A stretch of 64,000 nt of DNA from the IMG/VR virus record IMGVR_UViG_3300028048_000091, positions 32,001 through 96,000 of that record; one strand, given 5' to 3'. Source of the stretch: a virus (Duplodnaviria > Caudoviricetes). The notes under the pieces were generated by a model. The model did no database searches. It saw only the letters and a program-made list of their open reading frames with translations, and had not been told where the DNA came from. The translations under genes and the position numbers were made by a program. This document shows positions 98-2,593 of the stretch, piece after piece; within the stretch, counting starts at the first letter, position 1, and each line of letters starts with the position of its first letter.

Positions 98-2593
98 ATG
101 CCAAATTCAAATAGAATAACAAAAGACTGGCTCGATATAGCAGATGCTAACCTTTCCAAGAAATTACAACCACTTGCAAATGCAAAGGTAGTAAGAGTAC
201 TTGATACAGCACCAAGTACAACACAGGAATGGGAGGCACTTACAAGCTATACCATTGACGGAGTTACACATGCATTCAAACCGGGTGATGAGGTCAGAGT
301 ACCGGATAACGGTAGCGAAACAGGCTATACCTATTATAAACTCGATGCAATTGTCTCAGGGGCTGCTAAATGGGCTTTATCTGAAAGCGATGTGACTTCA
401 AGAGTTAAGATAACCGTAAACCTCGATGCATACGTAAGCACCGACGGTAATACATATACAAAGACATCTGGTACAGAACTTGAAGGGGTGGTAGTTACCC
501 TTACAGAAAACAGTGAAGGTACTTCTGTCAGCAAGACCGTGGCTTCAGGGGAAACAAGCGTGATATTCAAAGGTGTTGCACCATTGCTTACCTATACATT
601 AAGCGTAAGTGCCATCGACGGATATTCACAACCGGCCAACCAAACAATCACTAACCCACAAATGGGTGATGAACTGACAAATACATTCGAATACTATGCA
701 GATGAATATACATTCACCGCTACAAGTAACCAAGATACACAAAGTACACCGGATGAAACTATCGCTGCTGTAAAGGCAACCATTACATACGGTGGGGAAA
801 GCTATCAGAAAATCGGTACAATGAAGTTACCAAAGGATACCGTACCGACAAGCGTTACATGGCCGGATGTTACAGGGTATAGTAAAACAAGTAGCAATAC
901 AGGGTTTGCGTATAGCGCAGAATATAGCACTGAGGTATGTGTGGTGAACGTAAGTGCTCTTAACTCACAGGAAGAAACTGTGGCGGCTGACGGTGCCACT
1001 GTAAGTATCAACGGTATTGATTATGTATTGCAAGATGGTACACAGGGGGCTACTAAATCAGGAAATATATGGACCGTTACTACTAAAATACCATATAATA
1101 CTACATACTCCATTGCTGCTACAGGACTTACAGGATATGATGACCCAACTACTATAAGCAATATTACAAGCAACCAAATTACTAGAACAGTCAATTTGGA
1201 GTTTACTGAGAGAATTGAAAATGGTGTCTATGCATACTATTCAGATGGTAGTTTGAAACCATATGCCTCTGCTACAAGTGATGCTATTGGCGTGGCTGTG
1301 ATAGACGATGATGCATACTTCGTAATCGATAAAACAAATGTAACAGGTGATTATAAGAAGTTTGGCGGCTACGATAGGGATTTATCAAGTACAAATATAG
1401 TACTTACAACTGATAGTGCTACTGCTAAGACTGATTTTGATGGATATAGGAATACAACTAAACTAATCTCAGCTTGTGCTGGATATACAGATAGTACATA
1501 TCGTATTACTGGTGCACCAGCTGCTGAGGCATGTAGGTCACAATTCAGTGGAAAAGGCTATTTAGCGGCTGCTGGTGAATGGGACGTTGCCTATAAATAC
1601 AAAACAGATATCACTTCCATGATGTCTAAAATTGGTGGTACAGCATTGACAGAAAGCGACTATTGGACATCAACCTTATATAATACGTCTACCACTTCGT
1701 GGGGACTCAATTGGCGTAATGGTGGTTTCCCTGGCGACCATAGGAGTAGCAGCGGCCTTTACGTTAGGGCGTTCGCTGCTCTTAATACTTCATTAACTTT
1801 AACACTTGTATCCTTAGATACAAGTGGAGTAAGTGGTCTCTCCGTTATAGTTACTGATAGAACCGGTACCTCTCAGACCTTTACCTCAGATAGTAATGGA
1901 CAAGTAACTGTTAGTAGTCTTGCTTGCGGACAGGTTAATGTATCTGTTGCCGGTAAAGCAACCTTGAATGGTACTGGTACATTTAATGTTAATAGAAGTG
2001 TAACTACGCATACAACTACAATAAAAACGCCATCTACAGGTGTGTATGCATACTATGCAGACGGAAGTATGAGTACTACAGGTACATCAACGGCTATTGG
2101 CGTTGCAGTTATAACAAGCAATTCAGCATTTGTTATTGATAAAACTAATATACCAGCTGCTGGCGGTTTAACAACTGTTCGTTATGGTGGCTATAATAAG
2201 GATTTAACCGGCGCTGCAATGATAGCCACTGATACTACAACTGCCAAGACTGATTTCAGAGGTCAGCAGAATAGTATAAATATTGCTGCTGCTTGTAGTG
2301 GGTATGCAGATGGATACAGAACCGGTTCCGCTGCTGAGGATTGCCAAAGTAGATTTAATGGAAAAGGTTATCTTGGAGCATTTGGTGAATGGTATGATGC
2401 TTATCAGAATAAAACAGCTGTGAATAGTATGATGACAGCTATTGGTGGTACTGCAATAACAAGTGGTAACTATTGGACTTCAACTTTATATGATGCGTCT
2501 ACCCGTTCGTGGCTACTCTATTGGTATGATGGTGGTGTCAATAGCTACTATAGGTATAGCGGCAATTATGTCAGGGCGTTCGCTGCTCTTTAA
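98..2593 (+). CDS. Putative virion/receptor-binding protein with Ig-like/Thr-rich N-terminal region and two tandem C-type-lectin-like domains; DGR target
   Basis: 831 aa. Duplicated domain GVYAYY..DG...IGVAVI...FVIDKTN...YWTST...YVRAFAAL. Both copies end in a DGR-type variable repeat. Confidence 0.8.
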   Translation: MPNSNRITKDWLDIADANLSKKLQPLANAKVVRVLDTAPSTTQEWEALTSYTIDGVTHAFKPGDEVRVPDNGSETGYTYYKLDAIVSGAAKWALSESDVTSRVKITVNLDAYVSTDGNTYTKTSGTELEGVVVTLTENSEGTSVSKTVASGETSVIFKGVAPLLTYTLSVSAIDGYSQPANQTITNPQMGDELTNTFEYYADEYTFTATSNQDTQSTPDETIAAVKATITYGGESYQKIGTMKLPKDTVPTSVTWPDVTGYSKTSSNTGFAYSAEYSTEVCVVNVSALNSQEETVAADGATVSINGIDYVLQDGTQGATKSGNIWTVTTKIPYNTTYSIAATGLTGYDDPTTISNITSNQITRTVNLEFTERIENGVYAYYSDGSLKPYASATSDAIGVAVIDDDAYFVIDKTNVTGDYKKFGGYDRDLSSTNIVLTTDSATAKTDFDGYRNTTKLISACAGYTDSTYRITGAPAAEACRSQFSGKGYLAAAGEWDVAYKYKTDITSMMSKIGGTALTESDYWTSTLYNTSTTSWGLNWRNGGFPGDHRSSSGLYVRAFAALNTSLTLTLVSLDTSGVSGLSVIVTDRTGTSQTFTSDSNGQVTVSSLACGQVNVSVAGKATLNGTGTFNVNRSVTTHTTTIKTPSTGVYAYYADGSMSTTGTSTAIGVAVITSNSAFVIDKTNIPAAGGLTTVRYGGYNKDLTGAAMIATDTTTAKTDFRGQQNSINIAAACSGYADGYRTGSAAEDCQSRFNGKGYLGAFGEWYDAYQNKTAVNSMMTAIGGTAITSGNYWTSTLYDASTRSWLLYWYDGGVNSYYRYSGNYVRAFAAL
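1661..1783 (+). repeat. DGR variable repeat VR1 (internal)
   Basis: Aligns with 2471-2590. In the core, differences are at codon positions 1/2 only. Both end in identical AGGGCGTTCGCTGCTCTT. Confidence 0.8.
2471..2590 (+). repeat. DGR variable repeat VR2 (C-terminal)
   Basis: Same pattern as VR1; ends at the stop codon and is followed by a hairpin. Confidence 0.8.

Follow-up and report, generated by a model that had tools for sequence, protein, structure and literature searches.

A lectin-like phage gene with two variable repeats, one of them internal, and a probable remote diversity-generating retroelement

The DNA discussed here, called the window throughout, is a stretch of 64,000 nucleotides that corresponds to bases 32,001-96,000 of a 106,704-bp IMG/VR virus contig (IMGVR_UViG_3300028048_000091), which CheckV rates as 27% complete. 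The gene at positions 98 to 2,593 of the window encodes a protein of 831 aa (P0001) that carries two variable repeats (VRs), one in its middle and one at its end. These segments were almost certainly written by a diversity-generating retroelement (DGR), a system that also requires a template repeat (TR), a reverse transcriptase (RT) and an Avd protein. The likeliest reading is that the working cassette lies elsewhere in this phage and acts in trans from the unassembled part of the genome; we assign this reading a probability of roughly 0.55.

The original prediction, made from the letters of the window alone, placed two such segments in one gene, one of them internal, and both were located where it had put them and in frame with the gene (Table 1). 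They differ in length by one codon (VR1, 123 nt; VR2, 120 nt), which is the single 3-nt indel that had been described, and the shared 18-nt tail is identical in the two. The 15-mer core of this tail occurs at only two sites in the window, the ends of VR1 and VR2, compared with 0.11 expected by chance. A search of the whole contig with VR1 located a third copy (VR3) at contig 21,881-22,008, ~10 kb upstream of the window, which brings the contig to three VRs in two genes. VR3 is the end of a 260-aa gene whose product has a single domain of this lectin-like family behind a short N-terminal part. All three VR-gene reading frames are intact, and the 18-nt tail of VR3 is identical to those of VR1 and VR2. 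VR1 is longer by one codon than VR2, VR3 and the VRs of relatives; in the related proteins P0005 and P0006 the VR is 40 aa. The VR3 gene occupies contig 21,221-22,003 (L003:841-1623), and a Bacteroidota-type promoter motif, TAnnTTTG, stands ~40 nt before its start.

The placement of the differences within codons was examined in a codon alignment of the two lectin-like domains of P0001. Outside the VR (141 codons) there are 52, 36 and 69 differences at codon positions 1, 2 and 3, respectively, whereas inside it (40 codons) there are 14, 6 and 5. Third positions differ at 49% outside the VR and at 12% inside (Fisher p = 2e-5), and the comparisons with the third copy give Fisher p = 1e-12 and 6e-7. 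Taken pairwise, the three copies differ at 49-65% of third positions outside the VRs, in keeping with the earlier statement that the rest of the duplicated domain has diverged in the ordinary way, and at 5-12% inside, while divergence at first positions is equal inside and outside. Judged from these alignments, third-position divergence outside the VRs is near saturation. The low silent divergence within the VRs, set against this near saturation, indicates that the domains had long diverged when the VR DNA was copied from a shared source; the last 40 codons then appear to have been altered almost only at codon positions 1 and 2.

It had been claimed that all third positions are identical in the core of the two segments. 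This is correct for 24 codons (VR codons 8-31) of VR1 and VR2 and does not extend to the whole 40-codon segment, in which there are five third-position differences, most of them C/T transitions, plus one second-position C/T difference. Among the three VRs there are 33 variable columns, distributed 16, 11 and 6 over codon positions 1, 2 and 3 (27 of 33 at positions 1 and 2), and an A is still present in at least one copy at 23 of the 33. At least 17 codons vary per VR, and in the variable codons position 3 is fixed as T or C. A similar concentration of change is seen in close homologs, in which the domain scaffold is 87-90% identical and the VR just 57-67%.

The template expected from this pattern was found in a relative. 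Protein-guided scans of IMG/VR and of GTDB genomes (one genome per species, 185,579 prokaryote species), made with the single protein and with an alignment, returned one relative only, on an IMG/VR contig of another huge phage (G001; 149,924 bp, 41% complete); the same kind of scan of GenBank phages gave distant lectin-domain matches only. The ortholog in G001 (P0002, 844 aa) is 41% identical to P0001 over its full length and also has the two-domain build. Directly downstream of it are a 121-aa bAvd (PF22296, E = 4.9e-16), a non-coding A-rich template repeat and a 417-aa RT (RVT_1 match, E = 5.9e-20). When a 92-nt core that contains 38 adenines is compared with the TR, 16 mismatches are counted for the internal VR and 19 for the terminal one; every one of them is at an adenine, with 0 others. 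The G001 system, in which a single gene has both VRs, is a textbook DGR. The variation in the window phage fits the G001 template as well: 23 of the 27 alignable variable sites of its three VRs face adenines of that template (p = 5.6e-8). The signature of adenine mutagenesis that had been read from the window is thus supported, the template guessed there is nearly the one found in the relative, and the non-coding template copy beside a DGR RT that had been suggested as the thing to look for, although absent from the 27%-complete contig, is present in the ortholog. The cassette in G001 and the adenine-only mismatches make the DGR reading of the window gene sound. The two phages have about six proteins in common, and therefore what they share is the gene family and not the genome.

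P0001 is composed, in order, of a conserved N-terminal part, a beta-sandwich stalk, lectin-like domain 1, a beta-sandwich linker and lectin-like domain 2. The two lectin-like domains are paralogs of ~190 aa, each with a VR at its end; domain 1 is 57% identical to domain 2 and 47% identical to the domain of the upstream 260-aa gene. Searches of P0001 against Pfam, NCBIfam and PHROGs gave no significant match. PF07603 (Lcl_C, formerly DUF1566) is matched by 7 of 31 single-domain relatives; neither P0001 nor its single domains match it at E <= 0.1, and the Pfam gathering threshold is not reached. P0001 is therefore a divergent relative of PF07603 and no formal member by score. A profile built from the three lectin-like domains matched 1,928 representative clusters at E <= 1e-3, many of them with 2-6 tandem matches. 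An AlphaFold2 model of domain 2 has a pLDDT of 97.1, and its top Foldseek match is the Bacteroides ovatus fimbrial protein 4eps (E = 6.5e-5, TMq 0.68), followed by the C-terminal domain of Legionella Lcl (8q4e_A, E = 6.7e-4), with C-type lectins next and Mtd matched weakly. Both 8q4e and 4eps were reached by sequence profile too. The model and the Foldseek matches place the VRs at the C-terminal end of a C-type-lectin-fold domain, and among DGR targets the lectin-like domains belong to the class 'category d / CLec2' (Wu et al. 2018, PMC5758913).

The N-terminal 365 aa give weak leads to beta-sandwiches of the CarboxypepD_reg/SpaA type, which on sequence grounds are compatible with a stalk and are no proof of one. 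The match of PF13620 to the linker (E = 0.0079) is under the curated cut-off, and homologs bear PF13620 and PF17802. The overall build recurs in homologs at 40-73% identity, some of which have three lectin-like domains, and the closest homologs (P0003, P0005 and P0006, encoded on contigs of 26.6, 83.8 and 8.5 kb, respectively) are 57-73% identical to P0001. Among homologs from ENA assemblies, P0003 (1098 aa) and P0007 (745 aa) have three lectin-like domains and not two. By eye the first ~370 aa of P0003 are nearly identical to those of P0001, and this near-identity, together with the three domains of P0003, suggests that lectin-like domains are gained or swapped between close strains.

By analogy with the BPP-1 model, the 18-nt tail is inferred to act as the initiation of mutagenic homing (IMH) sequence (PMC5758913). 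In VR1 the tail codes for RAFAAL, and translation continues past it into the next domain. Two hairpins were identified past the VRs (Table 1). In BPP-1, hairpins past the VRs promote homing. The first hairpin of the window gene, for which none of 200 shuffles folded equally well, could function at a DGR target site, but counts as no more than a lead, as it is not conserved in G001 and has no counterpart past the internal VR of the ortholog. The second follows the last VR, and a comparable hairpin is present past the last VR of the G001 ortholog (L056; z = -4.5).

Table 1. Features of the target gene and its surroundings (window coordinates)
Feature	Position	Strand	Basis
DGR target gene P0001, 831 aa	98..2593	+	intact ORF
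C-type-lectin-like domain 1 (Lcl_C/DUF1566-like), internal	1214..1783	+	paralogy with domain 2
VR1, 123 nt, 41 codons, mid-gene (aa 522-562)	1661..1783	+	in-frame alignment with VR2
IMH-like 18-nt tail AGGGCGTTCGCTGCTCTT of VR1	1766..1783	+	identical in all three VRs
Beta-sandwich linker between lectin-like domains (CarboxypepD_reg-like)	1802..1996	+	Pfam PF13620, aa 569-633
Perfect 10-bp stem with 4-nt loop, within coding sequence, 20 nt past VR1	1803..1826	+	DNA fold z = -3.8
C-type-lectin-like domain 2, C-terminal	2036..2590	+	AlphaFold2 model and Foldseek
VR2, 120 nt, 40 codons, C-terminal	2471..2590	+	in-frame alignment with VR1
12-bp hairpin followed by T run, predicted terminator of the target gene	2601..2633	+	DNA fold z = -5.4
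Restart of collinearity with G002 (no target gene there)	2659	.	blastn L067 vs G002, homology from L067:16659

The relatives of the window phage are large. Relatives of a 523-aa protein of the window are found on contigs of 235-554 kb, which places the window phage in a megaphage lineage, and both the source sample and those of the other holders come from bovine or sheep gut. One of these genomes, G004 (IMGVR_UViG_3300045988_166570; 553,716 bp, CheckV 100%, TAG-recoded), shares 23 ORFs with the window phage at a mean identity of 45% and carries a DGR of its own. This consists of a candidate 131-aa Avd-like ORF, one template and a 676-aa RT that has the motif IGNLTSQ in common with the RT of G001. 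The TR is at 354,874-355,028 and the VRs are at 6,911, 8,059, 133,586, 218,006, 357,219 (adjacent to the cassette) and 529,120, so that five of the six lie 137-348 kb from the TR along the record as given. The two at 7-8 kb form the ends of a tandem pair of paralogous genes. Relative to the TR, the six VRs have 17-27 mismatches at adenine sites and 1-8 others, and 3-nt indels are present in five of them. It is shown by this genome that one megaphage cassette can serve targets hundreds of kb away.

A second relative, G002, has one protein that is 99% identical to its counterpart in the window phage, which first suggested a near-identical strain; this was ruled out, as the alignment covers just 29.5 kb of the contig and has 85% identity. 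These megaphage genomes are very mosaic. In G002 a 483-aa protein (G002:C1:188,795-190,246; L081:484-1935) has two lectin-like domains and a C-terminus, YYWSSSEYSS...YVRAFLRF, that resembles another DGR VR, on a 235.7-kb contig without an RT.

A number of results weigh against a cassette elsewhere in this phage. The absence of an RT and template that had been noted for the window holds and extends to the whole contig: PF00078 (RT) and PF22296 (bAvd) are unmatched on its 106.7 kb, tblastn with the Avd and RT of G001 gave no match there, and an adenine-tolerant scan of both strands returned no template-like copy. Within the limits of the contig the cassette is absent within 21 kb of any VR on one side and 72 kb on the other. 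A VR/TR pattern scan of IMG/VR, JGI metagenome contigs and GTDB genomes returned nothing real; this first pattern fixed two bases of a codon that is variable in relatives, and a template with adenines there could escape it. A relaxed pattern, applied to IMG/VR only, gave two matches, both due to chance, and the pattern scans may not cover records close to the window's own genome. No short ORF with a template-like peptide is on record, the clusters on record at 90% hold no VR variants, and five of the variable sites are plain C/T transitions that adenine mutagenesis does not explain. G002 lacks an RT, the target gene and a template for the window VRs. The arrangement of the locus points the same way, since the cassette is adjacent in the sole ortholog with readable flanks (G001) whereas here a terminator and convergent genes follow the target and collinearity with G002 resumes right past the terminator.

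Two of these points lose force on inspection. G002 aligns only in part, and its missing RT and target therefore say little about the window phage. The VRs of G004 show indels and changes at bases other than A although their own template is present, and therefore the VR1 indel and the C/T changes are normal in this setting. The remaining three quarters of the genome, which is 27% assembled in a lineage whose contigs reach 235-554 kb, leave room for a cassette. The statement that RT and template must act in trans remains the likeliest reading, as remote action is seen in G004, but its 'must' is too strong, for no template or RT of this phage was found.

The strongest rival, which we consider doubtful and clearly less probable than a cassette elsewhere in the genome, holds that an ancestral DGR wrote the segments and that its cassette has since been lost, for example by recombination past the target, leaving relic VRs that are frozen and drifting. 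The absence of RT, Avd and TR from 106.7 kb and from the collections scanned is what this rival would predict, and the seam with G002 right past the terminator, at the place where the ortholog has its cassette, is also compatible with cassette loss by recombination. The five C/T transitions and the one codon indel among the VRs could be taken as drift, and the VR sequences are identical in every assembly on record. In the Logan consensus contigs of the source run (X1; bovine gut, about 67x) a single sequence covers all three VRs, in a consensus in which minority variants are not visible; runs X2-X4 contain diverged relatives. In one X4 contig a VR end is apparently followed straight away by the downstream region, a mere hint of a cassette-less arrangement elsewhere. 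Against loss of the cassette stand the unassembled three quarters of the genome and the state of the VRs themselves, whose silent sites are 88-95% identical and whose 18-nt tails match perfectly, in contrast to the surrounding domains, where divergence approaches saturation (third positions 35-51% identical). The VRs of G004, with a template in the same genome, have like flaws (1-8 non-A changes and codon indels), and in published surveys 44.6% of VRs are changed at bases other than A (PMC6642488) and indels occur opposite AAC runs (PMC5758913). In view of these reports the imperfections of the window VRs weigh little.

It is also conceivable, and improbable in our estimate, that a helper cassette on another replicon in the cell, whether host chromosome, prophage or co-infecting phage, writes the VRs. 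Homing needs just template RNA, RT, Avd and a matching target end, and remote targets are documented (PMC5758913); a contig without a cassette would be expected in that case. There is, however, no matching template in the prokaryote genomes scanned or in IMG/VR, the domain family was not found at all in those prokaryote genomes, and in the relatives G001 and G004 the cassette is the phage's own. A phage that depended on a helper would gain nothing when the helper was missing, as argued in PMC5758913. Conversion between paralogous domains without any retroelement, which is possible within one genome and would need no template such as was sought here, is already disfavoured and very improbable, as it cannot explain variable sites that match adenines of an orthologous template (p = 5.6e-8), the fixed T or C at position 3 of variable codons, or G001 VRs that match a non-coding template with adenine-only changes.

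If a cassette elsewhere in this phage is accepted, the following mechanism may be proposed. The target gene would encode an adhesin or fibre associated with the virion of a rumen megaphage, with two ligand-binding lectin heads on a beta-sandwich stalk; P0001 is presumably carried on the virion and binds the host surface, and we infer that there is an active cassette for this phage. A template RNA with many AAY codons would be copied by an RT-Avd complex with misincorporation at adenines, as in the BPP-1 model (PMC5758913), and the resulting cDNA would take the place of the VR, starting at the GC-rich tail and extending upstream as far as the constant YW... codons. Each VR would be replaced separately, as appears to be so for the two VRs of G001, and the two heads of one protein could diverge independently. 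For the internal VR the tail would have to serve as coding sequence (RAFAAL) as well and be read through into the next domain. One remote cassette would act on all three VRs. More broadly, we regard it as an even proposition that megaphages run a DGR 'regulon' in which one template and one RT serve many dispersed targets, some of them more than 100 kb away, and in which a cassette that lies tens of kb away or more rewrites both the two-headed adhesin and the single-headed protein of the window phage.

Several further observations were made on the contig and on related records. Most genes neighbouring the target have no match in PHROGs. Between window positions 5784 and 59684 there are 12 copies of an intergenic block of ~56 nt that begins TGCAAA(G/T)(A/G)TAC; read on the minus strand this is the Bacteroidota -7 promoter motif TAnnTTTG, which fits the minus-strand gene starts and a Bacteroidota host. 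Two multi-kb regions have paralogs ~30-34 kb away at 80-87% identity (5983-8374 vs 40354-42167 and 14467-14820 vs 44691-44995), and three paralogous proteins of 419-420 aa (contig 37,955, 57,589 and 72,323) match one gene in G001 and G004. The 15-nt tail was found at 52 loci in IMG/VR, all attributable to chance except L013 and L029. In these two (115.9 kb and 58.9 kb, respectively) the tail is at the end of an ORF that reads ...VRVRAFAAF, which possibly represents a further DGR target family with the same IMH-like core.

The P0001 family is a clear recurrent example of a phage protein of receptor-binding type with 2-3 lectin heads that can be diversified independently; if the proposed reading is true, one protein carries two binding sites that evolve independently. 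DGR targets in huge phages can lie far from the cassette. Phage DGRs were expected to have no targets beyond 100 kb (Wu et al. 2018, PMC5758913), and the targets described here would, if the regulon is real, be the first truly remote ones in a phage, contrary to that expectation. By its authors' own account, a contig-based survey is unable to detect remote targets (Roux et al. 2021, PMC8144416). Surveys that need RT and VR on one contig miss such targets and undercount hypervariable adhesins in rumen and gut megaphages. In a limited literature search no description of DGRs in Lak-type megaphages was found.

DGRs with multiple VRs, several VRs per ORF, internal VRs, targets of the DUF1566 class and non-adjacent targets have already been published, and the less expected part of the present results is the scale, with six VRs over 553 kb and one template in G004. 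The closest class of targets is that of DUF1566/Lcl_C (Wu et al. 2018, PMC5758913; e.g. Legionella LdtA), in which the VR likewise forms the last ~40 residues of a lectin-like domain, with constant residues at both VR ends and AAY-templated codons between them. These targets also have weak DUF1566 matches and appended beta-sandwich or Ig-like domains, and the fold of domain 2 matches the Lcl C-terminal domain and 4eps. P0001 differs from the class in that it is under the Pfam threshold, has two tandem domains of which one is internal, and is phage-borne and not a bacterial lipoprotein.

In published surveys several VRs are found in 28.6% of DGRs. One ORF holds several VRs in 31 DGRs (Yan et al. 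2019, PMC6642488), and a CLec1 target with three FGE-sulfatase domains (three VRs) as well as one CLec2 target with an internal VR have been described (Wu et al. 2018, PMC5758913). Such systems resemble the present one in having more than one VR per gene, an IMH of the internal VR that is also coding, and one template for all VRs, as shown in G001. They differ in that the two- or three-domain build recurs here across a huge-phage protein family and in that the cassette is not adjacent in the window phage.

BPP-1, with its tail-fibre protein Mtd, bAvd, TR and Brt, is likewise a phage DGR that diversifies a receptor-binding domain of C-type-lectin fold by adenine mutagenesis, and its order of target, Avd, TR and RT is the same as that in the ortholog G001. 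Mtd is a weak structural match only to domain 2. In contrast to the single VR, single gene and adjacent cassette of BPP-1 in a 42-kb genome, the window phage has three VRs in two genes and, on the reading preferred here, a remote cassette. Remote targets are known from bacteria, with seven non-adjacent DGR targets in Treponema denticola and similarly remote ones in cyanobacteria (PMC4891356, PMC5758913). Those systems are alike in that one template acts in trans on dispersed targets with a common VR 3' end, and differ in that they are cellular, whereas the window phage and G004 are phages.

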